A program made the translations under genes and the position numbers. Of a stretch of DNA of 64,000 nt, positions 32,181 through 57,368 are shown piece after piece. The stretch is from Oscillospiraceae bacterium (GTDB taxonomy: Bacteria; Bacillota; Clostridia; Oscillospirales; CAG-272). The notes beneath the pieces were generated by a model. The model saw nothing but the letters and a program-made list of their open reading frames with translations. It ran no database searches and was not told the origin of the DNA. Numbering within the stretch: the stretch's first letter is position 1; each line of letters opens with the position of its first letter. The stretch is from the NCBI GenBank assembly GCA_015064315.1, contig SVSL01000001.1, positions 15,801-79,800 of the forward strand, in the 5' to 3' direction.

Positions 32181-32198
32181 CCCCGCCGAAGCGGGGCA
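32181..32198 (-). terminator. terminator of the XRE-family gene
   Basis: GCCCCGC-CGAA-GCGGGGC is followed on the minus strand by TTCTTCTTTGTTTT. It lies 5 nt after the stop at 32203. Confidence 0.5.
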
Positions 32199-32202
32199 AG
32201 AA

Positions 32203-33456: not shown

Positions 33457-33561
33457 TTATGAAATTGTTTTCTCCGCTAAAGTTACAGAGACGACGAAGA
33501 GCTTTCCTTTTTTGCAGCCGCAAATTCTTTAGCTGCTTTTTTGATTTAACGCTTCTCTTTT

Positions 33562-35973: not shown

Positions 35974-36169
35974 AAAAGCTCTCCTTTCGGATTATATACA
36001 AAACAAACAGATCGTTTCGTTACCATTATACAGAAAAGAAAAGAAAAAGTCAAGGGCTTTTAAAAGAATACAAAAAAATCCCCAAAAACCGATTGCTTTT
36101 TGAGGCGTTTTGTGATATGATATAAGTGAGGAACAAAATTACCCTTTTCACGGAAGGAGAGCTTACACC

Positions 36170-37222: not shown

Positions 37223-37243
37223 TGCAAACATAAGACGTTACAT

Positions 37244-37624: not shown

Positions 37625-37650
37625 GGCTCTGACGCGTTGGCGTCAGAGCC
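37625..37650. terminator. bidirectional rho-independent terminator (ddl side and GH127-ThuA gene)
   Basis: GGCTCTGACGC-GTTG-GCGTCAGAGCC is a perfect 11-bp stem, with T-runs after it on both strands. It lies 8 nt from the stop at 37658. Confidence 0.75.
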
Positions 37651-37657: not shown

Positions 37658-40390
37658 TTACTGATTAAATTCATCCACGGTCTTTTCGAGAATGTGGGGG
37701 CAATCGTTCTTGATTTCGTAAACAATTTGATTGGGAGCCGCCCAACGAACCGCGTTGGTAATAACCCTTTGTACGTAAGGATTGTAGAAGGACTTGCAGG
37801 TCTCGTGTCCGGGCTGGAAGTAGAATACCTTGCCCGCGCCGCGATGGAAGCAAGCACCCGCACGCATAATGTGACCGTCCTCAAACCACGCGCCAAATAC
37901 CAGCGCATCGGGCTGAGGAATGTAGAAGGGCTCGCTGTAAAGCTCCTCTTCCTCCAGAAGGAAATGATCGGGAATGCCTGCGGCGATCTCGTGAGAAGGC
38001 ATCAAGTTCCACATGATCTCCTTTTGATTTCTGCCCCAGGACAGGTTTCCGTTGGTACCAACAATCGCCTTGAAGGGCTTGGAGTGATGCGCCGAGTGAA
38101 GTGCCACAAAGCCCATCTTGCCAAGATATACGCGGTTGCGGATCTTTTCCACCAGCTTGTCATCTACCTTGTTATGGGCAACGTGTCCCCACCAGATCAG
38201 TACGTCGGTGTTGTTCAAAACCTCATCGGGAAGTCCTTGATCGGGATCGCACAGTGCCGCCAGACGGATCTCCATGTCCTCATTCTTCTTCAAGAAGTCG
38301 CGAACAAAGCCATGAATGCCATCGGGATAGAGCGCTCTTACGGATTCCTTTTTCTTTTCATGAACATACTCGTTCCAAACGGTAACGCGGATCACGTTGC
38401 GCTTTTGCTTATGAATTGCCTTCAAGGGCATCCAAACCTCGTGCAAGGACTGTTCGTCCCAAGTCTTACCCGCGCTGGAGAAGTCCACCAAGGTCATGCT
38501 CTCATCGTTGAAAAGTGCCACCTTAACCGCGCAAACCGTCTCAAAATCAACGGCATCGGCTTCCAAAAGCTCGGTGATGGCATATCCGTCCGCATCCACA
38601 AGGATGTGTACGGGATCAAAGCTGTTGCCCTTGATCCGTGCGTCACGCGCCAGCATCAAAGGACCGCGGCGAAGAGCAAAGAAGTTCCTGTCGCTGGGAT
38701 CCTCGCGCACCTCGATCACCTTCTGACCGTTGCGGATCACGTCTCTGCCCCAAGAATCGGGACGGTAAAGCTCGGTTCTCATATCCAAGGAAAGGCTGAT
38801 CTCGTCTCCATTCTTCCACAAACGATCGATCACGGTATAGCCCGGCGTTACCTCTACAGCTTCCCCGCCAACCGAAAGAGTCGTCTGAACGCTCCACGTG
38901 GGAATACGCAAAGCAATGGAGAACGCTTCCTTCTTGCGAAGCTTCAATGCAATCTTGATCTCGCCCTTTCGAGGATATCCACCACTGATGGAAAGCCCCA
39001 GCTTGTTGCCCTCGGGCGTCTTTGTCTCCATATCGCAATCCGAATAGAGATTGAGCGCAATGCCGCCCTCTGCCTTCATCAAAGCAATATGACCGACCAA
39101 GCCCGCGCCCGCCGCGCCGATACAAGCGCAACAGCCGTAGTAGGTATGATCCGCTGCAAATTGCTGGAGTCCTCCCACCTGTCTGCCGCGGACGTTGAGA
39201 CGCATCTCGCTGTAGCTGTCAAAGGGCAGATAAGTCAGCGTAGGATTCTTGTATTGCATCAGATCGGAATCCACCTGATGCGCGGGAAGAACCACGTTCT
39301 GATTGGTATTCAATGCACCTGCATAAGCGTTGTAGAGAGATTGCTCAAAGCAATCGGCATACTTGGGATCTCCCGTCAAAATCAGCATACGGAGGCAGAA
39401 CTTCATCCACGTCACGGTCACGCAGGTCTCCTGCTTGATGCCTGTGAAATAAGAAGACGTTTGACGTGCTCCCGAATGGTCGAAAAGCTCGTGGGTCATG
39501 CCCGCACAGCCAATGACGGTAATATCCGATTCCAGCACGCGCTTCCCAAAGTTTTCTACCGCCTTGCGGTATTTTTCCTCGCCTGTTACAAAGGAGTATT
39601 CCAAAACGCCCTCAAAGAAGGAGATCATTTCGTATGCCTTGGTCACGGGATACTGATAGGGGTAGAGGTTATCCTGCATGGAAAGCGCCAGAATGTTCCC
39701 CCAGGTAGAGCCGCCGCAGGAAATGATATGATGGGCAAGCTCCAGGTAATTTTCTTTCTTTGTCAGCTTATAAAGCAGCATCACGGGCTCGAGGATTGAG
39801 GACGCGTTGAGTCCGCCCCAATGCTTGACGTTTTTGGTGATGGGACGCTTTCCGTCCTTCTCGTCGCCAAACTTTTCGGCAATATAGTCGGCGTGAGCAA
39901 TGACCTTTTCAAGGATCTCGGCCTTCAGTGCCTCGTCACGGCAGATCTCCATGAAATAGATGAGAGAGAGCATAATATACTTTCTGCCCCAGGTATCCCA
40001 CTTGGTAAACTCGTTTTCTACCGTGTAGGAGGAAATGCGTCCGTAGCCGTCGGCAGTGGAAATCAGATCGCGCACGGTCTTTTCCAAAACCCGATAGAGC
40101 TTCAGATCCTGCGTGATCGAATAAACGTAAACCGCGCCGCGCATCATCTTTCCCCAGTACTCGCAGCGCCAGCCGCCAACCGTCAGGTCATCCTCATGGG
40201 TGCGGAAGGGAGAAACAAAGCGCTCCCACATCTTTTTATCCATCAACTGGGTCTCGGTGATAAAACGGAGCATCTGCTCCACCTGTCCGTGATAGTGAAC
40301 CGTCTTATCGCGGTCAAAGGCTACCGTGGGAAGGCATTTGGCATTTGCTGCCTCATGTCTTAAAAAAATCGGATTTTTCATAGTCTTCAC
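37658..40390 (-). CDS. fusion protein: GH127/DUF1680-like glycoside hydrolase + C-terminal ThuA-like domain
   Basis: 910 aa. The N-terminal ~660 aa carry QETCVTV and YYGCCACIG (ETC and GCC Cys motifs, as in beta-L-arabinofuranosidase HypBA1). The C-terminal ~240 aa carry RVTVWNEYVHEK, LIWWGHVAH and VALHSAHHSKPF, which are ThuA-like. No signal peptide. Confidence 0.72.
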   Translation of the reverse strand: MKTMKNPIFLRHEAANAKCLPTVAFDRDKTVHYHGQVEQMLRFITETQLMDKKMWERFVSPFRTHEDDLTVGGWRCEYWGKMMRGAVYVYSITQDLKLYRVLEKTVRDLISTADGYGRISSYTVENEFTKWDTWGRKYIMLSLIYFMEICRDEALKAEILEKVIAHADYIAEKFGDEKDGKRPITKNVKHWGGLNASSILEPVMLLYKLTKKENYLELAHHIISCGGSTWGNILALSMQDNLYPYQYPVTKAYEMISFFEGVLEYSFVTGEEKYRKAVENFGKRVLESDITVIGCAGMTHELFDHSGARQTSSYFTGIKQETCVTVTWMKFCLRMLILTGDPKYADCFEQSLYNAYAGALNTNQNVVLPAHQVDSDLMQYKNPTLTYLPFDSYSEMRLNVRGRQVGGLQQFAADHTYYGCCACIGAAGAGLVGHIALMKAEGGIALNLYSDCDMETKTPEGNKLGLSISGGYPRKGEIKIALKLRKKEAFSIALRIPTWSVQTTLSVGGEAVEVTPGYTVIDRLWKNGDEISLSLDMRTELYRPDSWGRDVIRNGQKVIEVREDPSDRNFFALRRGPLMLARDARIKGNSFDPVHILVDADGYAITELLEADAVDFETVCAVKVALFNDESMTLVDFSSAGKTWDEQSLHEVWMPLKAIHKQKRNVIRVTVWNEYVHEKKKESVRALYPDGIHGFVRDFLKKNEDMEIRLAALCDPDQGLPDEVLNNTDVLIWWGHVAHNKVDDKLVEKIRNRVYLGKMGFVALHSAHHSKPFKAIVGTNGNLSWGRNQKEIMWNLMPSHEIAAGIPDHFLLEEEELYSEPFYIPQPDALVFGAWFEDGHIMRAGACFHRGAGKVFYFQPGHETCKSFYNPYVQRVITNAVRWAAPNQIVYEIKNDCPHILEKTVDEFNQ

Positions 40391-40518: not shown

Positions 40519-42690
40519 TCAGTCAATCGCGGTCAAGGTAAACAGAACCGCCTCAAAATCCTTGGGCATACGTTCCAGATAAATGCCCACGTTACAAAGA
40601 ACCGAGCCGCTCAGAACGGTATCCAGCTCCTCAATGCGATAATGCTTATCGGGATCAAGACCTGCCGCACGGGCGATGAGATCACTGTTGTGCGGATTGA
40701 GTGCCTGATAGAAGACCATCATTGCCCGCTTCTTGTCCTTGGAAACCACAGTCTGCGACATAAAGTTACTGTGAAGTCGATTCTCACGGCGGTAAAGATC
40801 GCCCTCCAGAATCAGCTTTTCGGTGCTTCTGTGCTTCTTGATATTCTCGGCAATGGTGGAAAGCTCCTCCTCGGAAACGCGCAAAGGATCAAATTCATAT
40901 CCCAACACGCCCTGCCTTGCAATATTGGTACGGGCGCGCACCGATGCGGCTCTGCCGTTGCGGATATTGGGGGAAGCAGACACGTGGCAGGAGATTGAGC
41001 TCAAGGGGAAACAAAGGCTTGTACCGTACTGGATCTCGGTGCGGTCGTTGGTATCGGTGTTGTCGCTGGTCCAGTATTGGGGGAAGAACTTGAGCATGGC
41101 GCCGTCAAAGCGTCCACCGCCTCCGGAGCAGCCCTCAAAGATAATCTCGGGAAAGCTTTCGGTCAGATACTTCGCCAATTCATAAACACCGAGGATATAG
41201 CGATGCTGAACCTCTCCCTGTCTGTCTGCGGGAAGCAGACGCGACCAGTTCTCGGTCATGTGGCGGTTACAATCCCACTTGATGTAGTTGGCTCCGCTCT
41301 CGCTGATCACGCGGTACATGGATGCCTTGATATAATCCAACACGTCGCGACGGGTCAGGTCGAGAATACATTGGTTACGGGAAACCACGGGCTTGCGATC
41401 GGGAGAGGAAATGATCCAATCGGGATGGGCGCGATAAAGGTCGCTATCGGGGTTGATCATTTCGGGCTCGATCCAAAGGCCGAAGTTCATGCCTGCGGCG
41501 TGACAGTGATCCGAGATCTCCTTGAGTCCGCCGGGCAGCTTTTGCGTGTTGACGAACCAGTCACCAAGTCCGGCAAAAGCGTTGTTACGCGCGCCGAACC
41601 AGCCGTCGTCCAAAACAAAGGTATCAATTTCGCTTCCCTTGATGGCATCAATAGCATCCAGGAGGCGTTTGTTGTCAAATTTAAAGTGCATTCCCTCCCA
41701 GCTGTTGAGAACCACGGGTCTGGGACGGTACACAAAATTGGGATTGATCACGTAATTGCGGTAAAAATCGTGATAGGAACGGCTCATTTTGCCAAGTCCC
41801 TCGTTGGAGTAGCAAAGAACCGCCTCGGGAGTCTCAAAGGTCTCGCCGCTCTCCAGCTTCCAGGTAAAGGTATCGGGACGGATGCCTGCTAAAAGTCTGG
41901 TCTTTCCGTACTGATCCACCTCTACGCATTCATAGTGAGAGCTGCTGTACATGAGGCTGCAAGCAAACACGTCCCCGGTCTCCTCGGTCACGTTTGGACG
42001 AAGGAGGGCTACAAAGGGAGAATGCTGATGGGAGGAGTTTCCGCGGCAGTTGCCCACTACGATCTGTCCGTAATTGGCAGGGGTAATACACTCGCGGCGC
42101 TCCTCGTGGTGTCCGCCCGGAAGGGTCAGCACGTTGAAATCATGATCCCAAAAATCCAAGGAAGCAGACAGGGCGCGGCGCAGCTTTACAAAGTCCTTGC
42201 CAAGGTTTTGGATCTCGGCGCGGCGAGTGATAATGTTCTCATCCTCGTAAACCGTGTAATAAAGCTTCACGCGAAGAGAAAGCACCTCGTCCCAAAGTGA
42301 GACGACCAGCGTTTCTCCGCCACGGGCGGTGGGAATTCCGGATCCGATCTCGGGCTTCGTCGAAAGGATCTCAAATCCCTCATAGCGCAGATCCGTCACG
42401 GGACATCCCTTGGCATCCTCCACGCAAATGGCGTAGTCTCGGAACTCTCCGTAGTTTGCCACGGGATATTCGGGAAAAATGGAGGAGTAGCGATCCTGCT
42501 CCCCATCGATCTGAGCGGTATAGTCGTTGTAAACGTGAGATTTGTAAAAATACCGCAGATCGGCATCCTCACCAAGACGCGCGCCGTAATATTTATGGCA
42601 CAAATAATTGAAGCGATCGGCCCCCATCACGTAGGAAAAATCCTTTCCTCTGAGATGGAATTGCTTTTGATCGATCTGAATAATACTCAT
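40519..42690 (-). CDS. alpha-galactosidase, GH36
   Basis: 723 aa. FVLDDGWFGARN, IKWDCNR and CSGGGGRFD are GH36 catalytic-region motifs. Confidence 0.85.
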   Translation of the reverse strand: MSIIQIDQKQFHLRGKDFSYVMGADRFNYLCHKYYGARLGEDADLRYFYKSHVYNDYTAQIDGEQDRYSSIFPEYPVANYGEFRDYAICVEDAKGCPVTDLRYEGFEILSTKPEIGSGIPTARGGETLVVSLWDEVLSLRVKLYYTVYEDENIITRRAEIQNLGKDFVKLRRALSASLDFWDHDFNVLTLPGGHHEERRECITPANYGQIVVGNCRGNSSHQHSPFVALLRPNVTEETGDVFACSLMYSSSHYECVEVDQYGKTRLLAGIRPDTFTWKLESGETFETPEAVLCYSNEGLGKMSRSYHDFYRNYVINPNFVYRPRPVVLNSWEGMHFKFDNKRLLDAIDAIKGSEIDTFVLDDGWFGARNNAFAGLGDWFVNTQKLPGGLKEISDHCHAAGMNFGLWIEPEMINPDSDLYRAHPDWIISSPDRKPVVSRNQCILDLTRRDVLDYIKASMYRVISESGANYIKWDCNRHMTENWSRLLPADRQGEVQHRYILGVYELAKYLTESFPEIIFEGCSGGGGRFDGAMLKFFPQYWTSDNTDTNDRTEIQYGTSLCFPLSSISCHVSASPNIRNGRAASVRARTNIARQGVLGYEFDPLRVSEEELSTIAENIKKHRSTEKLILEGDLYRRENRLHSNFMSQTVVSKDKKRAMMVFYQALNPHNSDLIARAAGLDPDKHYRIEELDTVLSGSVLCNVGIYLERMPKDFEAVLFTLTAID

Positions 42691-42793: not shown

Positions 42794-45712
42794 TCAGCCA
42801 AGTGTTTTGATCGTCTCGGCAACCATATCTGCCAAGCACTGCGCACCTGCGCAAGAAAGCTCGTCAACCTTCTTGACCGTTACGATCATACCCTCGGCCT
42901 GCGATGCGGTAAAGTAATCCACAACGGGAAGCTTGCGCTCCTTGGCGATCTCATTCACCGTCTCGATCATGCCGCCATCCTCATAGAGAACCTTCTTGCG
43001 GACGTCATCAATGATACGCGCAAAGGGCGTGACTACAATATTCTTGGCGCCCCACTCCTCAAAGGTCTTGAGGATCTCGTGATAGCCCTCGATGAAAGCA
43101 GGCTTATAGGTATCCCAATGTGCGGAATTGGAACGGGACAGATCCGAGCATCCAAACCAGGATACCACGATCTGAGGCGCAAACTTCTTCATCGCCTTGA
43201 CGTTGACCCGTGCATTTTCCAGGAAGTAGGTCTCAGAGGTGGTAGCCGCTCTTGCCTTGATCTTGGAATAAACACGAACGTCGTATCCGTCACCCAGAGC
43301 GATCTGCAGCAAGGAAGCGTAGGAAGGAACCATGGAGCTGCCCTCGCAGAATTGGTCGCCTACAATGGCAACGCGGATCGCATCCTCACGGGGAACGATT
43401 CTCTCCATCTCGATCATCTCGCTCGCGGGAATGATCTCCTCGGGCATGCCGACGATCTCGCCGCCAAGGGTGTTTGCAACCGTCTTGATATGGTGCACCA
43501 GCATATTCTCCTCGGGAGCCTGCTCCTCGGTGAGAATGGAGGTGGTGAAGAAGAGAGGCATGTTGCGTACATAGAAGCCGCGGGTCAGGTTGACGGCAAC
43601 GGTGGAGTATGAAGTGTAGTTGCGGTTGAACCAATCGGCTCTCTTTTTGCCCAGATCGTTTGCGCCAACGGCAATCAGAATGGCGTCGGGCTTGGTGTCA
43701 ACGATATCCAGGAGCAGCTTTTCGGCAGTATTGAACATGTAAGCGTGCAATCCCTTGGCACCGTCATTCTCACCTGCGAACATCAGGATCTCCTTGGCGT
43801 CGGGGAACAACGCGCGTGCCTTTGCCTCCAGCGCGGGAAGATCCAAGCATCCGTCGGTAAACACTGCCAAACGGTTGATTGCCTTCTCGGCAGGCGCCTC
43901 AAAGGTTGCCAATGCCTGACCCTTGGGGAGGTCGAGCTTTACAGGCTCAAAGATAAAGCTTTCCTGCGGCATTGCCGTCTCTCTCAGCTCCAGAACCTCC
44001 AGCGTGGAGCAATTCTGATTCCACCTGTAACGGAAGCAGCCCTTGGGCTGAACGTCGACACCGTGATAGCCCTCTCCGCGGATATAGGCGCGGCAGGTAA
44101 CCTCGTCACCGTAGCAGATCGCCAGCTTTCTGGTAGCATCCTCAACGTTCAGCTTTTCAGCGCAAATATAAACGTCGGACTTCTTGAGAGAAGTGCCAAA
44201 GTATTCGTTGAAATCATCCAGCGTGTTGGAGCCGCTCTTGCCTCTGAGCCAAACAGTCAGCGTGCTGTGTGCCTTGATCTTGGCGTTGATGCGGAATTCC
44301 TGATGCAGACCGCAGTTGTAGATACGGAACTGATACTCGGAAACGTCAACGGTAGCATCGGTCTGATTGAACAGATCGAAGCAGCAATAGGGCTGCTTGG
44401 TATATCCCTGAGACAAATAGCTCTTGGTATTGGAGAAGAGCTGGGTAATGGTCAAGGGAGAGAGATAAACCACCTTGTTTACAGAAACGGTCTGTCCCTT
44501 ATAGGTACCGCGAACGGCGGCAATCAAACGGGTATCGCGGGCACGGATGGGAGCGGTATAGCCGGCGCGTGCCGTCTTCCCTGCTTCAATATCGCCAAGA
44601 ACGGACAGGAAGGGCTTGGACTTTCTCTCCACACTCATGCAAGCGGGATACCAAGAAACCTGAACGTCTTCAAGCTCTGCGTCTCCGAGATTCTTCACGT
44701 CGGCAACAGCCACCAGCTTGCCACCCTGATAGTTGGTTTGGATCTCAACCTCAACAGGGGCATCCTGCTCTACGAAGATCGCACCCGAAATTGCGTAGTG
44801 CATTCCGGAGATACGCTTTACGTAGGTATATTTCTGATCGTCGGGAATAGTGATCTCCCAACGGAAGCTCTTTTCTCTGCCTGCGTCCACCTGTGCCAGC
44901 ACGATGTTGTGCTCACCGATCAGCTGAAGAACGCCAACGCCGCATTCCTTTTCGGTGGTGGCATCGATCTCTACCTTGAGAGAGCCGGTCTTCTTCAGTC
45001 TGGAGCCGATCCACTCGCCGTTTGCCTTGTAGAACATCTTGAAGGAGCGGTCGGTGGTGGCATAGGTCCGATTCTTGCGCATACCGTCGAGAATGTTTTC
45101 ACGGGTCAGCTCCTCTGCCATAACGGCACCCGTCTCCTCGCGTCCCGTGGTCCAGTTGGCACCGTGGGTATCCTCGTTACTGACGGGGCTGATGTGCCAG
45201 CCCATACGCAGTGCGCGGTCGTATTCCTCCTCGATGCAGGAAATGCCGTATTCGGTGATACGGATCTCCATGATGCTGAAGATATCATCCATACGGGGAT
45301 CGAATTTGAAATCGTTGAAGTTACCCCACTTATCGCCGGGATGGTTGAACTGGCCAACGCCGGTCTCGCCAACCTTAGCCATTTCCTCATACCACTCGTC
45401 GAGCGTGAGATTGGTTCTGAAGATCGCCTTAGGAGGAATGATGTTTGCGTGTCCGTAGAAGCCGGTGCCGGCACCGTAGGTCATTTCATAGCCGTAAAGA
45501 GCAGCAAACTTGCCGTCCTCGTTCTTTTCCTCTGCCAGAGAAGGCATTACCGAGAAAAACTTTTCATCGGTCAGCTTGGGACCGTTGTGGTCGGTAACCG
45601 AAAAGTAATCTACCTTACCAACGTTACGGGCATAATCGTATGCTTCGGGGGGAGTGCCTCTACCGTCGGAAAAATCGGTATGCGCATGAACTTCACCGTT
45701 AAAAATTTTCAT
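42794..45712 (-). CDS. PHP-domain metallohydrolase with uncharacterised middle region and two degenerate SGNH-like modules (paralog 1)
   Basis: 972 aa with no signal peptide or TM helix. PHP motifs are EVHAHTDFSDG, TDHN, NHPG and SNEDTH. The C-terminal third has GANDLGKK (SGNH block III-like) but TDGC/GDQF where GDS is expected. Confidence 0.72.
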   Translation of the reverse strand: MKIFNGEVHAHTDFSDGRGTPPEAYDYARNVGKVDYFSVTDHNGPKLTDEKFFSVMPSLAEEKNEDGKFAALYGYEMTYGAGTGFYGHANIIPPKAIFRTNLTLDEWYEEMAKVGETGVGQFNHPGDKWGNFNDFKFDPRMDDIFSIMEIRITEYGISCIEEEYDRALRMGWHISPVSNEDTHGANWTTGREETGAVMAEELTRENILDGMRKNRTYATTDRSFKMFYKANGEWIGSRLKKTGSLKVEIDATTEKECGVGVLQLIGEHNIVLAQVDAGREKSFRWEITIPDDQKYTYVKRISGMHYAISGAIFVEQDAPVEVEIQTNYQGGKLVAVADVKNLGDAELEDVQVSWYPACMSVERKSKPFLSVLGDIEAGKTARAGYTAPIRARDTRLIAAVRGTYKGQTVSVNKVVYLSPLTITQLFSNTKSYLSQGYTKQPYCCFDLFNQTDATVDVSEYQFRIYNCGLHQEFRINAKIKAHSTLTVWLRGKSGSNTLDDFNEYFGTSLKKSDVYICAEKLNVEDATRKLAICYGDEVTCRAYIRGEGYHGVDVQPKGCFRYRWNQNCSTLEVLELRETAMPQESFIFEPVKLDLPKGQALATFEAPAEKAINRLAVFTDGCLDLPALEAKARALFPDAKEILMFAGENDGAKGLHAYMFNTAEKLLLDIVDTKPDAILIAVGANDLGKKRADWFNRNYTSYSTVAVNLTRGFYVRNMPLFFTTSILTEEQAPEENMLVHHIKTVANTLGGEIVGMPEEIIPASEMIEMERIVPREDAIRVAIVGDQFCEGSSMVPSYASLLQIALGDGYDVRVYSKIKARAATTSETYFLENARVNVKAMKKFAPQIVVSWFGCSDLSRSNSAHWDTYKPAFIEGYHEILKTFEEWGAKNIVVTPFARIIDDVRKKVLYEDGGMIETVNEIAKERKLPVVDYFTASQAEGMIVTVKKVDELSCAGAQCLADMVAETIKTLG

Positions 45713-45809
45713 AATGTTTTACCTCTTTTTTCTTTTCACAAATATTTTGATCTCAAGGGGTGCGGAGCGCCTCTCGCCCCCCCCCTTGAAAAAAGGTCTT
45801 GAAAATACG

Positions 45810-48743
45810 TTATGCGTACATTGCTTTGAGCTTTTCAGCTACCATTTCCGCAAGATGCTTGATACCTGCAAGAGAAGGATAATCCATATCTCTCTGCAGC
45901 TCTACCAAGCCCTCCTGCTCGTGGGTATCCTGAAAGAAATCAACAACCTCGGCACCGCAGTCGGCGGCAATGGCAATGACCATATCCTTAACGCCGCCCT
46001 CTTGACGGAGAACGGTACGGCGACTGTCATCCACGTTGCGACGGTCAAAGGGAGTGATCACGACGTTCTTTGCGCCGATATCCGAGAATGCCTGCAGGGT
46101 TTCTCTCAAGCCCTCGTCAAAGTCCTGGCGATAGCCCGAGGTCTCCCATTCGTCGGCAACCGCGTGACGCAGGTCGGCACATCCGAACATGGAAACGATC
46201 ACGTTCATCTTCTGCTCCTTCATTTCCTTGAGGAAGGAAGCGGAATTCTCCAGATAATTTTTGGGAGCGCGCTTGGAGGCTCTTGCCGTATCCTTGGCGT
46301 AAAGATATACGTCAAAGCCGTCTCCCAAAAGCTCCTGCAAGAAGAATGCGTAGGAGGGACCCTTGGGAGTCTTATCGCTGAACTGGTCGCCTACCACGGC
46401 AACGCGGATCGCGTCGGCGCGAGGCGTTACGGTGGAGGGATTTTCCACGACCTTGGAAAGCGGAACGGTCTCCTCGGGAACGCCTGCAAACGGAGCGTAA
46501 AGCGTGCGAGCTGTGCTCTTGAGAATGTGCACGAATACGTTTTCATCCACCTTTTGCTCCTCATTCAGCTCGGGCATGGTGAAGATGAGGGGGATGTTAC
46601 GAACGTAAAGGCCGCGGGTAGCATTTACCAGCACGGTGGAACAGGACACGAAGTTGCGGGTAAACCAATCGGTACGCTTCTTTCCGCAATCGTTGGCACC
46701 CATGCAGACCAGTACGGCATCGGGCTTGGCGTCAACGGCACGCGTCAACAGCGACCAGCCACTCCAGAACAGGTAGTTGTGGAGGCCCTTGGAGCCGTCG
46801 TTTTCGCCTGCGATCATGATGATCTCCTTTGCCTCGGGAACAATGGCTTGCGCCTTCTTCTCAAGGGCGGCAAGATCGGCGCAGCCGTCGGTAAGAACCA
46901 CGAGGCGCTCAATCTTGGGAGCGGTGGGCTCGGCGTACGTAGCCAAAGCCTTGCCCTCGGGCATTACAACAGCGGCAGGAATTGCGGGAACAAACGCTCT
47001 GGGCTTTTCGTTTCTGCGCAATCCCAGCACCTTCATTGTGGAAACCTCGTTGGTCCACTCATAATCAAAGCAATCGTTCCCCGCAACGTCGGCGCCGTGG
47101 TATCCGTCGGAGCGGATCCATGCACGGCAAGCAACCTCATCACCGTATCCGATGGTCAGCTTGCGGGTATAAGCATCGGGATCGAACTTCAGGGGACAAC
47201 AGTAAACCTCGTCCTCGGTCAGCGCGGTTCCGTAGAACTCGTTGAAATCTGCCATGGTCTTAGCAGATTCAGCGCCTCTGAACCAAATGGTGAGCATTCC
47301 GTGAGGTGCGATCTTGCGCGGCACGGTAAACTCCTTGTAGGTACCGAAGATGTAGTAACGGAAGGTATATTCCGAGGCATCGATCTCCACGTCGGTGTTG
47401 TTATATACGTCGTAGCAGCAGAAGGGCTGCTTCTGAAATTTAGCGATCTGAGAGATTCTGGAGTTGCAGAAAAATCTCTGAATGGTCAAAGGAGCAAGGT
47501 AAACCACACGGCTCAAGGTCACGGGCTCACCGTCGCACATACCGCGAACGATTGCCACAAGTCGGGTGTGCTTTGCCAGCACGGGGGAGGAGAAGCCTGC
47601 CAGCGTATCGGCACCGGCATCCAAATCACCCAGCTCGGAAACGTAGGGCTTTGCGCCCAGCTCAATGCTGACGCAAGCAGGATACCATTCGACCGACAGA
47701 TCGGTGATCTTCTTGTCTCCGATATTCTTGACGCAAGCCGATGCAACGGTCTTGCCGTTCTGATATCCGGTTTTGATCTCCATCTCCACAGGAGGATTCT
47801 GCTCTACGAAGATGGCGCCCGAAATGGCGTAGTGCATTCCGGAAATGCGCTTGACGTAGGTATATCTCTGATCGTCCGGAAGGGTGATCTCCCAATGATA
47901 GGTCTTTGCCGCGCCGACGTCAACCTGTGCCAGCACACGGTTGTGCTCGCCAACCAGCTGCAGCACGCCAAGTCCGCACTCCTTTTCGGTGGAGGCATCG
48001 ATCACCACGTTGAGCGCGCCGGTCTTCTTCAATCTGGAGCCGATCCACTCGCCGTTTGCCTTGTAGTAAAGCTGAAGGGTACGGTCGGTGGTGGAGAAGG
48101 TGCGATTCTTGCGCATTCCGTCGATGATATTCTCGCGGGTCAGCGACTCGGCAAGCACGCCTCCAGTCTCCTCTCGGTTGGTGGTCCAATATTTGTTGTG
48201 CGCATCCTCGTTGCTCACGGGGCTGATGTGCCAGCCCATGCGCAATGCGCGATCGTACTCCTCCTCAATGCAGGAAATGCCGTACTCGGTGATACGGATC
48301 TCCATGAGCTTGAAAATATCATCCATACGGGGATCGTAAACGAAATCGTTGAAGTTACCCCATTTGTCGCCGGGATGGTTGAACTGACCGATTCCCTTCT
48401 CTCCCGCCTTTGCCATTCCGTCATAAAAGCGATCCAGCGTGTAGGAGGTGGGGAAGAAAGCAGTGGGCTGCAGAATATTGATATGTCCGTAGTGACCCGT
48501 GGTAATATCGTACGTCATCTCATAGCCGTGAAGCGCCGCATACTTGCCGTCCTCATTGAAGGTCTCGGCAGTCTCGCCAACCAGCTTTACGCGGGTCTGA
48601 TCATAGCGTCCAAGATTGTGGTCGGTGGTAGCAAAGTAGTCAACGTGTCCTACGTCACGGGCATACGTGTACGCCTCGGCAACGGTTCCCTGACCGTCGG
48701 ATTCCGTGGAATGGGCGTGCACCTCACCGTAAAAGCATTTCAT
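45810..48743 (-). CDS. PHP-domain metallohydrolase with two degenerate SGNH-like modules (paralog 2)
   Basis: 977 aa, collinear with 42794..45712. Long identical runs include GQFNHPGDKWGNFNDF, MEIRITEYGISCIEEEYDRALRMGWHISPVSNED and YTYVKRISGMHYAISGAIFVEQ. Confidence 0.72.
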   Translation of the reverse strand: MKCFYGEVHAHSTESDGQGTVAEAYTYARDVGHVDYFATTDHNLGRYDQTRVKLVGETAETFNEDGKYAALHGYEMTYDITTGHYGHINILQPTAFFPTSYTLDRFYDGMAKAGEKGIGQFNHPGDKWGNFNDFVYDPRMDDIFKLMEIRITEYGISCIEEEYDRALRMGWHISPVSNEDAHNKYWTTNREETGGVLAESLTRENIIDGMRKNRTFSTTDRTLQLYYKANGEWIGSRLKKTGALNVVIDASTEKECGLGVLQLVGEHNRVLAQVDVGAAKTYHWEITLPDDQRYTYVKRISGMHYAISGAIFVEQNPPVEMEIKTGYQNGKTVASACVKNIGDKKITDLSVEWYPACVSIELGAKPYVSELGDLDAGADTLAGFSSPVLAKHTRLVAIVRGMCDGEPVTLSRVVYLAPLTIQRFFCNSRISQIAKFQKQPFCCYDVYNNTDVEIDASEYTFRYYIFGTYKEFTVPRKIAPHGMLTIWFRGAESAKTMADFNEFYGTALTEDEVYCCPLKFDPDAYTRKLTIGYGDEVACRAWIRSDGYHGADVAGNDCFDYEWTNEVSTMKVLGLRRNEKPRAFVPAIPAAVVMPEGKALATYAEPTAPKIERLVVLTDGCADLAALEKKAQAIVPEAKEIIMIAGENDGSKGLHNYLFWSGWSLLTRAVDAKPDAVLVCMGANDCGKKRTDWFTRNFVSCSTVLVNATRGLYVRNIPLIFTMPELNEEQKVDENVFVHILKSTARTLYAPFAGVPEETVPLSKVVENPSTVTPRADAIRVAVVGDQFSDKTPKGPSYAFFLQELLGDGFDVYLYAKDTARASKRAPKNYLENSASFLKEMKEQKMNVIVSMFGCADLRHAVADEWETSGYRQDFDEGLRETLQAFSDIGAKNVVITPFDRRNVDDSRRTVLRQEGGVKDMVIAIAADCGAEVVDFFQDTHEQEGLVELQRDMDYPSLAGIKHLAEMVAEKLKAMYA

Positions 48744-48946
48744 AAATCATTCCCTCTTTTCTTTGAATTGCAAAATGCATTTTCGAACGGAGGGCTCTTC
48801 AGCATCCCGTTCACCGTAAAAAATTACATTTTATATTTTACAACAAAAAGATATATTTTGCAATACTTTTTCTAAAAAAACAAAGCATTTTTTTTGCAAA
48901 ATGTTCAAAAAGAATCGGTTTTGAGCAAGCCTTTTTCAAAAAACTA

Positions 48947-48975: not shown

Positions 48976-49023
48976 GGGTACAGCTTGGCGGTATCTGCCG
49001 CTTTACGGAAGGAGGCGAGGGGC

Positions 49024-49869
49024 TTGAAAATCACGGTACAACAAATAGATCCGGCAGTTTTGTCGGTGCAGGGATTACAGTCCCTTCCCGAGGAGCTTCT
49101 ATCCGAGGGTCGTGCCGCACAGTTTTCGCATTATTGTCTGTTATATGCGGTGGACGGAATCTTTGAGATTCACTGGGAGCATAAAAGCCTGCTGATTCCC
49201 GAAAACAGCGCCTTCCTGTTTTTTCCGACCAAGGAATACACCGCACAGATCGTTCAAGCACCGTTGCACCTGATCGATATTCGGTTTGATTTTTCCGGAA
49301 AAGCAGTCTCGGGCACGGCACTGAAGAAAGCGACGAAGCAGCTTGACGATACCATTGCGTTTTTGGATCAAACGGCTCTCAATTCCCCCTTGGTGTTGCG
49401 TCCGTCCGCACAGGCGCGAAAGCTGTTGGAAGCGATCCTTTGGGAATGCCAGAAAAATCTGTTGTTCTCGCAAGAGATCGTCAATCTTTACATGAAAGCC
49501 TTCCTTTTGGAAATCTTTCGTGACAATATGGATCCGCACAACGCCGATTCTCCCAATACGGCGGAAAAGATCATGCGCTACGTGCACGAGCATATTACGG
49601 AGGTGCTTCCCAACGAGGCGGTAGCGCAGGCACTTTCCTATCATCCCAATTACGTCAATCGCGTAATCAAAAAAAGTACCGGCATGACGTTTCACAAATA
49701 CGTGGTGGACGAAAAGCTGTACTATGCCTCTACGTTGCTGATCAATACGAGCAAGAGCATTACCGACATTGCGTATGACCTTTCCTTCAATACCTCCTCC
49801 CATTTCAGCAACCTCTTTACCGAAAAATATCACTGCACGCCCTCTCAATACCGAAAAAAATACAGATAA
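49024..49869 (+). CDS. AraC family transcriptional regulator
   Basis: The C-terminal double HTH is AraC-type (ALSYHPNYVNRVIKKSTGMTFHKY...ITDIAYDLSFNTSSHFSNLFTEKYHCTPSQYR). TTG 49024 follows GGAAGGAGG and lies downstream of the predicted promoter. The ORF-track start at 48985 sits at the predicted transcription start. Confidence 0.8.
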   Translation: MKITVQQIDPAVLSVQGLQSLPEELLSEGRAAQFSHYCLLYAVDGIFEIHWEHKSLLIPENSAFLFFPTKEYTAQIVQAPLHLIDIRFDFSGKAVSGTALKKATKQLDDTIAFLDQTALNSPLVLRPSAQARKLLEAILWECQKNLLFSQEIVNLYMKAFLLEIFRDNMDPHNADSPNTAEKIMRYVHEHITEVLPNEAVAQALSYHPNYVNRVIKKSTGMTFHKYVVDEKLYYASTLLINTSKSITDIAYDLSFNTSSHFSNLFTEKYHCTPSQYRKKYR

Positions 49870-49967
49870 AAAGGGGCTGTCTCATCAAGAACACCTCAAA
49901 ACCGAAAGATAGCGTAGCCTTGAAGTTATTTCATGGCTACGCTATCTCTTTGAATGACCCAAAAACT

Positions 49968-50171
49968 TGTAGGGACCGGCGTAGCAAAGCGGCGCGAGCG
50001 TAATGAATGACACCACGGTGTGGTGTCAGAACGGGAGCGTGACCGAGTCGCAACGAGAACTCGACTGTCCGGAAAGCAACAAATTTTGCTTTTTAAACGG
50101 CTATTGGTATGCAGCCACACGCAAAGCAAACGCTTTTTCTTCTCGGACCGTCGGGGACGCCGGTCCCTACA
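49968..50171. repeat. cluster 3: REP-like unit with a distal inverted 15-mer
   Basis: A complete unit lies on the minus strand at 50143-50171 (TGTAGGGACCGGCGTCCCCGACGGTCCGA). Its first 15 nt, TGTAGGGACCGGCGT, recur in inverted orientation at 49968-49982, enclosing 174 nt. Confidence 0.5.
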
Positions 50172-50286
50172 CCGATAAATTGAATTTTTCGGTTTGTCGT
50201 TTTATTCTGTAAATACAGGTATTTGTTGAAAAAACTTTGAAAATGCTTTGAATAAGGGGCTTTCTTAATGAGACAGCCTCTTTTCT

Positions 50287-51263
50287 TTATTCCGCCAATA
50301 CGCAGAGCGCGTCAGAAAGCGGAACGCGATCGGTCAAAGTCGCTTTCATCTCCGCATCCAGCGCAAGAACGGTCAGGTCACCGCTCCGCTCGTTGGCGCA
50401 AAGGATAAATTTCTCATCCGGCGTCAGGATCATATCTCTGGGACCTCTGCCGCCGCAAGGGATATTGTGAAGCAGCGCAAGGCTTCTGCCATCCTCGGAC
50501 ACCGAAAATACGCTTACGGTATCGGCACCGCGATGGGAAACAAAGAGATGCCTTGCATTCCGCGTCAAACGGATCGCCGCCGCAGTATTTCCCTCCATGG
50601 AAACGCCGCAGGAATAGAGGAAAGGCATTTTAATTCATGCGCTTCCGCATCGTATTTCAGCACACTGACAGTGGACATCAGCTCGTTGACGGCGTAATAA
50701 AAGCCGTTTCTTCCCGCCACCAGATGACGCACGCCGTGTCCCTTGGGCATCTGACACTTGGAGAGCAGATTGAGATCAAGATCGTAAACAAAAACCGTAT
50801 CCAAGCCGAGATCGGTGCAGAACAAGGCATCCCCCTCCTCGGTGGGAATCACACAATGGGTGTGAGGGGCATCCTGCCGTCCGGGCTGATGATTCTCCGC
50901 AGGCGCGTGGGTCACTTCCCCGCCGCCGATCATGGAAAGATTGCCGGAAAGATAGTTTACCGCATAAATCCGATCTCCTACCTTGCAGAGGTGGCAAGCC
51001 ACAATGCCTTGGGTAGAAATCGGCTCGGATGCCGCGGTCAGCTCCGCGTTCACCTTGATATAGCCGCTCTTGCCGTCAAGCCCCTCGGGGGCACGCAAAA
51101 GCGTATGGAGCGTCTCGCCCTCCTTAACAAAATACATGGGGCGGTCAAGAGATAGAAAAGAACACCGAGAGAGCTTTCCCTCGGCGTTCAATTCATACTG
51201 CGCGATCCCACCGTCGGGTGCGCAGGACGCCGCCCAGACCTTACAGAGCGGTTTGTGTGTCAT
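50287..51263 (-). pseudogene. lactonase (7-bladed beta-propeller, 6-phosphogluconolactonase-like) interrupted by a frameshift
   Basis: ORFs 50565..51422 and 50287..50628 overlap in different frames. Together they read as one lactonase (...YYAVNELMSTVSVLKYDAEAHELK // ...EGNTAAAIRLTRNARHLFVSHRGADTVSVFSV...). The likely start, ATG 51263, follows a GGAGA RBS. Confidence 0.65.
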
Positions 51264-52143
51264 TGGGATCTCCGTTTCTGGCAAGCTCGTATTCCTCGGT
51301 CCAGTCAAGATCTCTGTATTCCTCACCGCGGGGATCGTTCTTGATCCAATCGGTAAGCAGATCCAGCATCTCCTCGGTCCAGGTAGCTCTGTCGATCTGC
51401 GCGGTGGTAAACTTGCCCTCACCGATCATTTCAAAGCCGAAATCGTCCTTGACGTGGGTCTTTGCCGCGCCCTCTACCACCTCTTGAACCAGGTGTGCGG
51501 GAATGAACAGAACACCGCCGCCGGCACCGAATACGATGTCACCGGGGAGGACGGTAGCCTTACCGATACGGGTAATGCTGTTAAAGTCCTTCATAATAAA
51601 CTCACGGATGGGAGTGGGATCAATGCCGCGGTAGTAGACCTGAACGCCCTCGTGGGTTACCATCTGCTCCACGTCACGGATACCGCCCCAGATCACGGCA
51701 CCGCCGGTCTTGGTGCGGGTCTTGATCGCCTTGGTCAGGTTGCCGCCAAGGAAGGTTCCCTTAAAGATCTTATCGTACATATCGGCAACTACAACGTCGC
51801 CCTCCACCAGAGAGTCGATGACCCACTGGTTGTAATTTCCCTTTCTTCCCTCCTCGGCACCGGTGGCAAAAGCAACCTCATGCAGGTCGGGTCTGGTAGG
51901 AACGAAGGAGCAGGTTACGGCACGTCCGATCAGCTTTCTGCCATCGTTGTGCAGGGTCTTGAGGTCGCCCTCAAACTGACTGATGTATCCCTTGACGAAA
52001 ATGGGCTTCCAAAGCTCCTCAAGGGTCATTTTGCGCATTGCCTCCAGATACTTATCCGGAACACGGGGACGTCCGTCGGGAAAGCGCTCGCCCTTCCATT
52101 CGGGAGTCAGCGCAATGATCTCTTCTCTGCAATTAAATTTCAT
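51241..52143 (-). CDS. RraA-family protein (putative class II pyruvate aldolase / oxaloacetate decarboxylase-like), long form
   Basis: GGNLTKAIKTRTKTGGAVIWGGIRDVEQM matches the RraA/HMG-aldolase core pattern. At 300 aa it has N- and C-terminal extensions beyond a ~160-aa core. Confidence 0.7.
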   Translation of the reverse strand: MKFNCREEIIALTPEWKGERFPDGRPRVPDKYLEAMRKMTLEELWKPIFVKGYISQFEGDLKTLHNDGRKLIGRAVTCSFVPTRPDLHEVAFATGAEEGRKGNYNQWVIDSLVEGDVVVADMYDKIFKGTFLGGNLTKAIKTRTKTGGAVIWGGIRDVEQMVTHEGVQVYYRGIDPTPIREFIMKDFNSITRIGKATVLPGDIVFGAGGGVLFIPAHLVQEVVEGAAKTHVKDDFGFEMIGEGKFTTAQIDRATWTEEMLDLLTDWIKNDPRGEEYRDLDWTEEYELARNGDPNDTQTAL

Positions 52144-52156
52144 GTCAATTCTCCTT

Positions 52157-53638: not shown

Positions 53639-53749
53639 AATCAAAATCCTCTCTTGCGTAATAATTGCGATACTTTTATTATACAGAAAGAAGAACGAAG
53701 ATGCAATCTCAAAAAACGACAAAAATATGCGATTTCTTTACATTATGAA

Positions 53750-54466
53750 TCAAAGACGCAGTCCGCCGTCCATAACGATATCGCTCCCCGTGATGTAAGC
53801 GCCCGCATCCGAGCACAGAAGCAGAACCGCACCAACGCAATCCTCGGGCTGACCGAAGCGTCCCATGGGAATGGAGGATTCCACCGCTCTTCTCTTTTCG
53901 TCATCCTCGTAGATCGCCGCGTTTCTGGGCGTTGCGATGGCACCGGGAGCAATATTGTTGACGGTCACACCAAAGGGTGCTACCTGCTTGGCGATATTCT
54001 TGACAAGGCTCATCACCGCGCATTTGGTAGCGGCATACATGGGAAGCTCGGGATGGTTGCGGTATTGATTGGTGCTTCCAACCGTTACGATGCGTCCCCA
54101 TCCCTGCTCCTTCATGGCAGGATAATATGCCTGCATCAGCAAGAGACTGCTCTTGACGTTGACGGTAAATTGCAGATCCATGCTTTCCTCGTCGATCTCA
54201 TCCCAGCGTTGCTTATTTTGCACGCTGGCGTTGAGAACCAGACAATCCACCGCTCCGGTCTTGGTAACAAGCTCCTTGACCTCTTCGGGCTTGGAAAAAT
54301 CCGCAGTTACTGCCTTCCACGCGCCGATCTCGGTCTTAATGCGCTCAGCCTTTTCCAAATTGGAGGTGCAATGAACGATCACGTCGTAGCCCTCCCTTAC
54401 AAATGCCGCCGCCATGGCTTTTCCAATGCCTTGGGTGGAGCCTGTAATCAGTATTTTCTTTTTCAT
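53750..54466 (-). CDS. SDR family oxidoreductase
   Basis: ATG 54466 (MKKKILITGSTQGIGKA...). Has the TGxxxGIG cofactor motif and the YAATK catalytic YxxxK. Confidence 0.85.
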   Translation of the reverse strand: MKKKILITGSTQGIGKAMAAAFVREGYDVIVHCTSNLEKAERIKTEIGAWKAVTADFSKPEEVKELVTKTGAVDCLVLNASVQNKQRWDEIDEESMDLQFTVNVKSSLLLMQAYYPAMKEQGWGRIVTVGSTNQYRNHPELPMYAATKCAVMSLVKNIAKQVAPFGVTVNNIAPGAIATPRNAAIYEDDEKRRAVESSIPMGRFGQPEDCVGAVLLLCSDAGAYITGSDIVMDGGLRL

Positions 54467-54470
54467 ATTC

Positions 54471-55829: not shown

Positions 55830-55856
55830 AATTCTTCTCCTCTATGTATTCTTGAA

Positions 55857-57260: not shown

Positions 57261-57368
57261 AGAATCTCCTCCTAAATGAATAAATCGTTCTCAAAGATGA
57301 AAGCGCTTTTTTTCAATTATACCAATTTTTACAGGTGCATTCTACCATTATGTTCCAAAAAACCGATA

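Follow-up and report, generated by a model that had tools for sequence, protein, structure and literature searches.

Closest described systems

CehA of Rhizobium sp. AC100 and McbA of Pseudomonas sp. C5pp are carbaryl hydrolases, both of them exported xenobiotic enzymes that cleave carbamates, not phosphoesters, and that carry neither lamin-tail (LTD) nor SGNH modules; most characterised PHP enzymes are phosphoesterases. The proteins analysed here, A and B, match the whole CehA/McbA domain model NF038032 with their N-terminal 315 residues (a barrel and a first sandwich), but unlike CehA and McbA they are predicted to be cytoplasmic, are ~975 aa long, carry four further domains and lie in glycoside-hydrolase operons. 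The PHP phosphoesterases BAD_1165 (3o0f/3e0f), RNase AM (7ug9), PolX (3au2) and EndoQ (5zb8) have the fold and the first HxH...D...DH motifs in common with A and B; they differ in being single-domain or polymerase-fused, and the sequence likeness covers ~40 residues. A longer stretch, the first 55–60% of A (PHP, two sandwiches and the LTD-like region), is shared at 31–38% identity with uncharacterised PHP-Ig-LTD surface proteins of Clostridia (P0033–P0063, 870–1200 aa), which, unlike A and B, carry either a lipobox-containing signal peptide or C-terminal anchors together with extra N-terminal domains, and lack the pair of C-terminal modules termed M1 and M2 here. The fold of M2 resembles SGNH/GDSL carbohydrate esterases (AlAXEase 7ddy, Axe2 4jko, 3rjt, 4rsh and 1yzf; target-normalised TM 0.6–0.72), with which its blocks I, III and V can be aligned, and M1 is a truncated version of the same fold (TMq ~0.5); unlike these esterases, M2 has its Ser, oxyanion Asn and His replaced and M1 lacks blocks I and V.

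Searches of the PDB, Foldseek and the literature yielded neither a solved structure nor a characterised enzyme, nor a publication, that matches the whole architecture. At the sequence level, A matched no PDB chain at E ≤ 1, and literature searches on CehA/McbA with PHP, on DUF3604, on PHP with glycoside hydrolases and on LTD with PHP returned nothing on this family. The initial sequence-only reading, which knew of no characterised enzyme with this architecture, is upheld, since neither protein matched a characterised family or structure over its full length.

A tandem paralog pair in a putative glycoside-hydrolase operon

Within the window (the whole stretch of 64,000 nucleotides that was analysed, from an uncultured gut member of the Clostridia), the pair and its surroundings are laid out as follows:

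48985..49869, plus strand: divergent AraC-family regulator (Pfam HTH_18 and HTH_AraC)
48835..48863, minus strand: promoter-like site TTGCAA-17-TAAAAT upstream of B (consensus match only)
45810..48743, minus strand: gene B (ORF and translation), 977 aa, PHP-Ig-Ig-LTD-pseudoSGNH-pseudoSGNH; first gene of the putative operon
42794..45712, minus strand: gene A (ORF and translation), 972 aa, paralog of B with the same architecture
40519..42690, minus strand: melibiase-type GH36, 723 aa (Pfam GH36N, Melibiase and GH36C, E = 5e-135), 103 bp downstream of A
37658..40390, minus strand: GH127-ThuA fusion, 910 aa (Pfam); last gene of the putative operon
37625..37650, minus strand: strong terminator-like hairpin (11–14 bp stem and T-run) directly after GH127-ThuA

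The two adjacent same-strand ORFs that had been described from the letters were recovered on the minus strand at the lengths first given, and their standing as paralogs was borne out by a collinear BLASTP alignment with 56% identity across the full length (E = 0). The identical runs quoted in support of this relationship, GQFNHPGDKWGNFNDF and MEIRITEYGISCIEEEYDRALRMGWHISPVSNED, each occur in both proteins, as do the quoted motifs at their respective positions (EVHAHxxxSDG, TDHN, NHPG, SNEDxH, TDGC, GDQF, GANDLGKK/GANDCGKK and DELS/DYPS). The DNA encoding the two identical peptides differs at 3/48 and 8/102 positions, respectively. The possibility that gene conversion had recently acted on the pair was considered and rejected, given DNA identities of 71–79% over repeated stretches and synonymous differences within identical peptides. 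A is 100% identical to P0001, from a Ruminococcaceae/Oscillospiraceae MAG, and its AF2 model has a pLDDT of 88.4 and a pTM of 0.85. In neither protein was a signal peptide or a hydrophobic or transmembrane segment detected (maximum Kyte-Doolittle value over 19 residues, 1.3), which fits the cytoplasmic location proposed earlier.

Based on gene spacing, the promoter-like site and the terminator-like hairpin, B, A, GH36 and GH127/ThuA appear to form one operon with a divergent AraC regulator, the GH36 and AraC neighbours being those that the first reading had named. The ATG of B is preceded by a GAGGGA ribosome-binding site, and a strong hairpin occurs in the putative operon only after GH127-ThuA. 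No transporter gene was found beside the putative operon in the window, which is rich in hemicellulose genes (GH10, GH39 and GH3). A defence role was also considered and was rejected, since PADLOC gave no defence-system match.

A PHP barrel with invariant putative ligands, followed by beta-sandwiches and a lamin-tail-like domain

The order of domains in A and B is well supported: a CehA/McbA-type PHP barrel, an Ig-like sandwich, a variable sandwich, an LTD-like domain, M1 (a truncated SGNH-like module) and M2 (a full SGNH-like module). These map to the window as follows:

45005..45712, minus strand: PHP (CehA/McbA-type) metal-hydrolase barrel of A, residues 1–236 (NF038032, invariant ligands, Foldseek)
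48039..48743, minus strand: PHP barrel of B, residues 1–235 (NF038032, ligands as in A)
43958..45004, minus strand: residues 237–585 of A, comprising sandwich 1 (237–316), sandwich 2 (317–418) and a lamin-tail-like domain (419–585) (model, Foldseek, LTD mapping)
43433..43879, minus strand: M1 of A, residues 612–760, truncated SGNH-like, without nucleophile Ser and without block V
46467..46913, minus strand: M1 of B, residues 611–759, pseudo-SGNH (family alignments)
42797..43381, minus strand: M2 of A, residues 778–972, complete SGNH fold with catalytic residues replaced (GDQ, GCSD, VDEL)
45813..46412, minus strand: M2 of B, residues 778–977, pseudo-SGNH (GDQ, GCAD, DMDY)

The N-terminal PHP module proposed from motifs proved real and could be placed in the CehA/McbA branch. 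Residues 5–315 of A match NF038032 at 86.6 bits (cut-off 80; model positions 4–315 of 315), and B scores 71.9 bits, slightly below that cut-off, with coverage as for A. A Foldseek search with the AF2 model of A returned the PHP structures 3o0f and 5zb8 at probability 1.00. The Pfam PHP model PF02811 matched neither protein at E ≤ 0.1, marking A and B as a divergent PHP branch; the matches of a PHP-region profile to the PDB are confined to a ~40-residue motif (E = 0.1–2), and the first PHP motifs of A and B align with those of the PolX and RNase AM PHP domains. Several homologs in the family already carry the automatic NCBI name 'CehA/McbA family metallohydrolase'.

To describe conservation we used an alignment of 26 family members at 35–100% identity. 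Ten putative metal ligands, identified by sequence alignment and forming the pattern HxH, D, H, E, H, H, DxH (H9, H11, D16, H42, E76, H88, H124, H173, D181 and H183), are invariant in all 26 sequences, together with further columns of the barrel (73/236 invariant overall), and the PHP barrel and first Ig-like sandwich are the most conserved parts of the proteins (~66% mean identity). Given these invariant ligands, the PHP barrel is the presumed catalytic domain.

The middle region, which had been left unassigned as possibly beta-sandwich or lamin-tail-like, resolves into both, namely two Ig-like sandwiches and a probable LTD. Its secondary structure in the AF2 model of A is all-beta, and Foldseek matched MG, FnIII and transglutaminase barrels. 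Sandwich 1 is Ig-like and forms part of the NF038032 model, and sandwich 2 is variable. A itself reaches 15.3 bits against Pfam LTD (PF00932; gathering score 34.3); the A-homologous region in the relatives P0033, P0039, P0036 and P0058 scores 30–50 bits, aligning to residues ~420–520 of A, onto which the Pfam LTD of P0033 (residues 704–800) also maps.

Two SGNH-derived modules with degenerate catalytic positions

Both C-terminal modules belong to the SGNH fold, as first suggested, M2 by sequence and Foldseek and M1 by hhalign and a stand-alone model. M2 scores 30–31 bits against Pfam Lipase_GDSL_2 (A, 30.4), slightly below the gathering score of 32.9; its profile matches 7ddy (E = 3e-5) and 1yzf in the PDB, and its Foldseek matches are GDSL esterases with TMt 0.6–0.72. 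Matches of the same profile to RGLG vWA domains were set aside as generic alpha/beta similarity, not functional homology. M1 aligns by hhalign to M2 and to the SGNH set with 92–93% probability, and the best Foldseek matches of its stand-alone model (pLDDT 91.8) are all SGNH esterases at TMq ~0.5; no relatives of M1 were found outside this family.

The loss of Ser and His holds family-wide. At M2 position 787 (the block I nucleophile) the 26 members have Q (13), R (6), K (3), H, L, A or G (one each) and never Ser, and at position 856 (block III oxyanion) A (14), S (4), G (4), P (2), E (1) or T (1) and never Asn; position 951 (block V His) is E in A and Tyr in B, with His in 2/26 members. Intact SGNH relatives aligned alongside M2 keep GDS, GTND and DGxHP. 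In M1, block I is deleted or degenerate (reading TDG) and the module ends before block V (hhalign and model); the GxND-like GANDxG is kept in A and B, with only G683 and D686 invariant across the family. Two details of the original assignment needed adjustment. For block V, read as DELS/DYPS, the absence of His stood and the register was off by one, the canonical His aligning with E951 (A) or Tyr (B), the residue just before 'LS/PS', and not with the S. For block I, read as GDQF and TDGC, GDQ in M2 was upheld, and TDG in M1 may be positionally non-equivalent to GDS in view of the deletion in the hhalign alignment. Mean identity is 38% in both modules, with 4 (M1) and 6 (M2) invariant columns among the 26 members, and M2 keeps the family-specific conserved residues R899, D903 and R905. 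With the catalytic positions of M2 replaced and blocks I and V missing from M1, both modules are probably fossil esterases, incapable of Ser-His chemistry.

Family spread and conserved neighbourhood

The M1+M2 pair is found only in the A/B family, a small one of ~30 protein clusters whose sources are without exception MAGs of gut Clostridia. In the family tree, A-type and B-type proteins form sister clades with single-copy outgroups, B falling in the B-type clade with P0013–P0021, and the pair probably arose by duplication inside one subclade. An intact PHP site in both copies suggests two substrate specificities or a hetero-oligomer.

The link to carbohydrate genes that had been read from this single locus is kept around homologs, with GH36, GH127 or GH94/GH2 adjoining family genes in 8/9 genomes examined. 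GH36 is adjacent in six of the nine, GH127 in four, a divergent AraC gene in five and GH94/GH2 in two. In L001, L005, L015 and L016 the next gene after the homolog is GH36, and in L017 a GH94 gene intervenes between the two; GH127 also lies beside homologs in L001, L015 and L009, and the divergent AraC gene is likewise present in L001, L002/3, L004 and L017. This linkage to GH36/GH127/AraC spans 35–100% identity, with gaps of 19–130 bp.

Genes of phosphoesterase type recur near the family: in L015 the homolog's own gene string includes genes for an EEP-like protein and a GDPD, and an NAGPA gene lies nearby, L009 has an EEP gene and a metallophosphoesterase gene near the homolog, and a metallophosphoesterase lipoprotein gene (751 aa in the window) occurs both in the window, beyond the AraC gene and beside mutS2, and in L001. 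Next to distant homologs, in L002/3, L004, L016 and L017, there is a conserved MBL-fold lipoprotein gene, and L005 has a gene for a 712-aa lipoprotein that resembles it. The 751-aa metallophosphoesterase lipoprotein of the window was rejected as a homolog of the MBL-fold lipoprotein, the likeness being in the signal peptides only.

Proposed function and alternative readings

From family membership and gene neighbours, we infer the chemistry of A and B and a role in glycan or phospho-sugar processing. The best explanation as a whole, to which we give an even chance, is that the PHP domain carries out a hydrolysis in the cytoplasm, on a glycan fragment that the cell has imported, and that the SGNH modules are non-catalytic. 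Within the PHP superfamily, A and B would be paralogous metal-dependent hydrolases from the CehA/McbA branch, with catalysis at the His/Asp/Glu metal cluster of the N-terminal barrel, as the invariant ligands suggest, and with two Ig-like sandwiches, the lamin-tail-like domain and two SGNH-derived modules in non-catalytic roles, M1 and M2 most likely serving in substrate binding or scaffolding. Co-transcribed with GH36 and GH127-ThuA from a promoter shared with the divergent AraC regulator, they would act inside the cell on imported glycan fragments containing alpha-galactoside or arabinofuranoside residues and take off some non-glycosidic decoration, either one that obstructs the glycosidases or one that is dealt with after they have acted.

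A phosphomonoester or phosphodiester is the likeliest decoration, because nearly all characterised PHP enzymes act on phosphoesters; an ester or carbamate, as for CehA and McbA, is less likely. The repeated proximity of the family to phosphoesterase-type genes counts for a phosphoester; against it, those genes differ in family between genomes, and some may be bystanders. A more specific form of this proposal, which we consider speculative and on the whole unlikely, is a new kind of cytoplasmic glycan-processing enzyme whose PHP metal centre would strip phosphodiester or phosphomonoester groups off glycoconjugate fragments that are imported and bear alpha-galactoside or beta-L-arabinofuranoside residues, the fossil SGNH domains serving in substrate recognition; teichoic-acid-like polymers or phospho-glycolipid head groups would then be candidate sources.

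A doubtful but credible alternative is that the barrel removes ester, acyl or carbamoyl groups from carbohydrates by ester or carbamate chemistry like that of CehA/McbA, and that the fossil SGNH modules, still having affinity for acylated sugars, deliver these to its metal site. The only characterised NF038032 members hydrolyse a carbamate ester, M2 derives from SGNH proteins that resemble acetylxylan esterases (it matches NCBIfam AxeA1 weakly, besides the hits to AlAXEase 7ddy and Axe2 4jko), and the abundance of hemicellulose genes in the window would suit such a substrate; however, PHP enzymes are mostly phosphoesterases, the recurrent neighbours are of phosphoesterase type and not acetyl-related, and the residues lining the SGNH pocket vary freely. 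The barrel might instead act as a nuclease or nucleotide phosphodiesterase, like the PolX PHP domain, EndoQ and RNase AM, in which case the substrate would be a nucleic acid or nucleotide, not a glycan, and the glycosidase neighbours coincidental. Foldseek and HMM matches to EndoQ 5zb8, PolX, RNase AM 7ug9 and 3o0f point in this direction, the wider relatives P0065, P0070 and P0075/76 join this PHP-LTD core to nucleic-acid-binding OB-fold domains and SLH anchors, and LTDs are frequent companions of bacterial extracellular nucleases. Coincidence is difficult to reconcile with a GH36/GH127/AraC linkage that persists in 8/9 genomes down to 35% identity at such short spacing, the OB-fold relatives differ at the C-terminus and are secreted or located at the surface, and Pfam finds no OB-fold or other nucleic-acid-binding domain in A or B, so that we regard this reading as distinctly improbable.

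Two further readings concern the role of the accessory modules. Continued catalysis by the SGNH-like modules through a non-canonical mechanism, making A and B bifunctional esterases and PHP hydrolases, could draw on the block I Gly-Asp, the block III Asp and R899, D903 and R905 retained in M2, and on the block V His of two members, with a full DxxH in P0022. It seems very unlikely to us, as the nucleophile position never holds Ser, Thr or Cys, the oxyanion Asn of M2 is missing in all 26 members, M1 has no block V and conservation of both modules is low overall; the lack of conservation at the catalytic positions argues against a substitute mechanism. Alternatively, A and B may be non-enzymes, sensors or scaffolds that, for example, bind an inducer and act with the AraC regulator, whose gene adjoins theirs and in whose product Pfam recognises no ligand-binding domain; much of each protein is indeed made of non-catalytic modules. 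The ten putative metal ligands and the invariant columns of the barrel are typical of a selected active site, and to this last reading we attach the slightest probability of all.

Implications

On the speculative reading in which the PHP centre removes phospho-decorations from imported glycoconjugates, A and B, together with the conserved secreted MBL-fold lipoprotein and GLUG-motif proteins, would define a Gram-positive locus, so far undescribed, by which a phosphorylated glycan is used. The practical value of A and B is modest until a substrate is found. They nevertheless offer a clear case in which two successive catalytic domains have decayed to pseudoenzyme modules beside a different active centre that was kept, and are useful for work on the re-use of dead enzyme domains. 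Among gut Clostridia, those of the Oscillospiraceae/Ruminococcaceae type are abundant, most have not been cultured, and much of their glycan metabolism depends on genes that lack annotation. The A/B family, which is conserved and uncharacterised, partners GH36 and GH127 enzymes and points to a step of non-glycosidic processing that escapes carbohydrate-enzyme annotation in its present form.

Domain anatomy of the tandem pair

The two neighbouring paralogs, here A and B, are encoded on the same strand and separated by 97 bp:

42794-45712, minus strand, A, ORF of 972 aa
45810-48743, minus strand, B, ORF of 977 aa

Over their full length the proteins share 56% identity and 72% positives with only six gap positions (BLASTP, E = 0), and every peptide string quoted by the sequence-only reading was recovered from the translations. 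The coding DNA of two long identical peptides differs at 3/48 and 8/102 positions, compared with 71-79% identity across the rest of the paralogous DNA, which indicates protein-level constraint rather than a recent copy. The 102 nt encoding an identical 34-residue peptide (MEIRITEY...SNED; A 45173-45271, B 48204-48302) are 92% identical, within 300-nt repeats of 78-79% identity; this is the mark either of very strong constraint that extends to codon choice or of local gene conversion long ago. Neither protein contains a signal peptide or hydrophobic segment.

Pfam yielded only sub-threshold matches for A and B (a C-terminal Lipase_GDSL_2, short DUF3604 stretches and a faint lamin-tail domain, LTD). 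NCBIfam identified a PHP-type CehA/McbA metallohydrolase domain (NF038032) at residues 5-315, covering the whole model, with A above (86.6 bits) and B below (71.9 bits) the 80-bit cut-off. An AlphaFold2 model of A, built from a 26-sequence family alignment spanning 35-100% identity to A, was confident (pLDDT 88.4, pTM 0.85).

Domains of A in the AlphaFold2 model
Residues 1 to about 236, alpha/beta barrel (PHP)
Residues about 237-316, 317-418 and 419-585, three all-beta domains
Residues about 612-760, alpha/beta module M1
Residues 778-972, alpha/beta module M2

Foldseek comparison of this model to the PDB gave matches at the domain level only, with no target covering more than about 17% of A by TM-score: GDSL/SGNH esterases (3rjt, 4rsh, Axe2 4jko and AlAXEase 7ddy; target-normalised TM 0.6-0.72), macroglobulin, FnIII and transglutaminase sandwiches, and the PHP proteins 3o0f and EndoQ (5zb8). 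In four relatives (P0033, P0036, P0039 and P0058) Pfam scores an LTD at 30-50 bits, the one in P0033 (residues 704-800) aligning to A residues about 420-520, and the third sandwich of A is, by this homology, most probably a lamin-tail domain.

Conservation is highest in the PHP barrel and first sandwich (about 66% mean pairwise identity), with 73 of 236 barrel columns invariant. H9, H11, D16, H42, E76, H88, H124, H173, D181 and H183 are retained in all 26 sequences, and the first PHP motifs have aligned counterparts in the PHP domains of PolX, RNase AM and BAD_1165. Judged from these residues, the PHP site looks alive.

Loss of catalytic residues in the SGNH-like modules

Where M2 aligns with ordinary SGNH relatives drawn from an exhaustive search, the latter retain GDS, GTND and DGxHP blocks, in place of which A and B carry GDQ, GC[S/A]D and VDEL/MDYP. 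Among the 26 family members, the M2 nucleophile position is occupied by Q (13), R (6), K (3) and H, L, A or G (one each), and the oxyanion Asn by Asn in none. The loss of Ser and His proposed from sequence alone was borne out at M2, Ser never occurring and His being present in only 2/26; the DELS/DYPS register given for the His was off by one, as alignment to 1yzf places the catalytic His before "LS". Such free variation at catalytic positions argues against a substitute mechanism. Residues R899, D903 and R905 of M2 are conserved and family-specific.

An exhaustive search detected no relatives of M1 outside the A/B family. Profile-profile comparison supported its homology to M2 and SGNH proteins (probability 92-93%, E about 5e-7), in an alignment that has a gap at block I and stops before block V, and the five best PDB matches of a stand-alone M1 model (pLDDT 91.8) were SGNH esterases (TMq about 0.5). 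Both modules average 38% identity, with four (M1) and six (M2) invariant columns. M1 and M2 thus appear to be fossil SGNH modules; three of the four features that define SGNH hydrolases are lacking in A and B, and an esterase annotation should be avoided.

Distribution of the architecture

P0001, a hypothetical protein from a Ruminococcaceae/Oscillospiraceae MAG, has the same sequence as A (100% identity). Relatives that match over the full length group into about 31 clusters at 90% identity and about 10 representatives at the 50% level among 1.84 billion proteins; a scan of one genome per species found five full-length loci, each in a gut Clostridia MAG of human or roe deer origin. In a neighbour-joining tree, A-type and B-type proteins are sister clades, and single-copy homologs serve as outgroups. 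Homolog locus L001 carries the tandem pair too, and the pairs P0005/P0016 and P0010/P0017, whose members come from contigs of matching length, suggest the same arrangement elsewhere. The first 55-60% of A (PHP, sandwiches and LTD) is common to a broader set of Clostridia proteins (870-1200 aa), which differ in being lipoproteins or surface-anchored and in lacking M1 and M2.

Genomic context

Upstream of B are a promoter-like site and a ribosome-binding site, and an AraC regulator gene diverges from B. In the putative operon B-A-GH36-GH127/ThuA, successive intergenic gaps are 97, 103 and 128 bp, and the only strong terminator-like hairpin (37625-37650) directly follows GH127-ThuA. Among homolog loci, L004 alone has no adjacent glycoside hydrolase.

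Neighbours of A/B homologs in other genomes
L001, L005, L015, L016: GH36 directly downstream
L017: GH36 after a GH94 gene
L001, L015, L009: GH127
L002/L003: GH94 plus GH2
L001, L002/3, L004, L017: divergent AraC

The window's GH127 protein (37658-40390, minus strand, 910 aa) has a C-terminal ThuA-like domain and in NCBIfam comes closest, with a weak score, to aceric acid hydrolase. The fusion recurs in L001 (905 aa); GH127 proteins beside the PHP protein in L015 and L009 (652-664 aa) are without ThuA. Directly downstream of the terminator, between the GH127-ThuA and GH3 genes, lies a 393-aa ORF (36050-37231, minus strand) with no Pfam or NCBIfam match.

Phosphoesterase-type genes recur near homologs, but their kind varies by genome. 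In L015, which carries P0011, the PHP-SGNH, GH36 and GH127 string runs on into genes for an EEP-like protein of 265 aa and a GDPD glycerophosphodiesterase. Opposing the string is a gene for a NAGPA (phosphodiester glycosidase) protein of 936 aa, and two further GDPD genes lie upstream (L015 17115-18648 and 18736-21546). EEP and metallophosphoesterase genes lie near the homolog in L009. A metallophosphoesterase lipoprotein gene is present in the window and in L001, in both between mutS2 and AraC; the window copy (58375-60630, minus strand, 751 aa) pairs a C-terminal calcineurin-like domain with a long N-terminal region that has no assignment.

Also counted among these phosphoesterase-type neighbours is a conserved secreted MBL-fold lipoprotein (685-700 aa) of L002/3, L004, L016 and L017, to which a 712-aa lipoprotein in L005 is similar; in several of these loci it is accompanied by secreted GLUG-motif proteins (480-510 aa) and a solute-binding protein. 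It adjoins single-copy homologs and, in most copies, combines an unassigned N-terminal half with an MBL-fold C-terminal half. The window has no counterpart of the lipoprotein or the GLUG-motif proteins.

Positions of the 685-712-aa lipoprotein
L002/L003, 3828-5888
L004, 4752-6809
L005, 4705-6843
L016, 429-2531
L017, 3562-5640

Compared with the close relative L001 (5794-6968), the window holds about 8 kb extra (49900-58262) in the interval from the metallophosphoesterase lipoprotein gene to the divergent AraC gene. Encoded in this block are a second AraC, GH10, an enolase-superfamily dehydratase, an SDR, GH39, an RraA-like aldolase and a lactonase, and the block has the appearance of a sugar-acid/xylan module that was inserted next to the operon. 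A 7-bladed lactonase gene (50287-51422, minus strand) is split into two overlapping ORFs, which may mark it as frameshifted, as a pseudogene or as misassembled:

50565-51422, minus strand, Pfam Lactonase positions 12-235
50287-50628, minus strand, Pfam Lactonase positions 243-342

GC content falls to 0.386 at 22001-24000 (about 0.51 elsewhere), where the window's sole tRNA gene lies (23624-23694, minus strand), and to 0.436 at 32001-34000, close to a gene for an HTH_3 regulator.

Discussion

Alongside the directly supported observations (architecture, intact PHP ligand set, SGNH residue loss, narrow distribution and glycoside-hydrolase linkage), we infer that the PHP barrel would be the sole catalytic centre, that M1 and M2 would serve in substrate binding or as scaffold, and that the enzyme would take a non-glycosidic group off an imported glycan fragment. 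The target bond is most likely a phosphoester, given that almost all PHP enzymes of established function are phosphoesterases and that phosphoesterase genes lie nearby. The main alternative is an ester or carbamate, as CehA and McbA, the carbaryl hydrolases that give NF038032 its name, hydrolyse carbamates. LTD and OB-fold combinations in secreted relatives could point instead to a nuclease, a role made less likely by the conserved glycosidase operon.

Searches of the PDB, family databases and literature turned up neither a solved structure nor a curated family nor a paper for the whole architecture. At the domain level A and B belong to the CehA/McbA metallohydrolases, a named but barely studied family whose NCBI name some homologs already bear; new here is a narrowly distributed architecture within this PHP branch, with two pseudoenzyme modules. 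Nothing found on the pair contradicts established principles, and the family lends itself well to functional discovery in the glycan metabolism of gut Clostridia.
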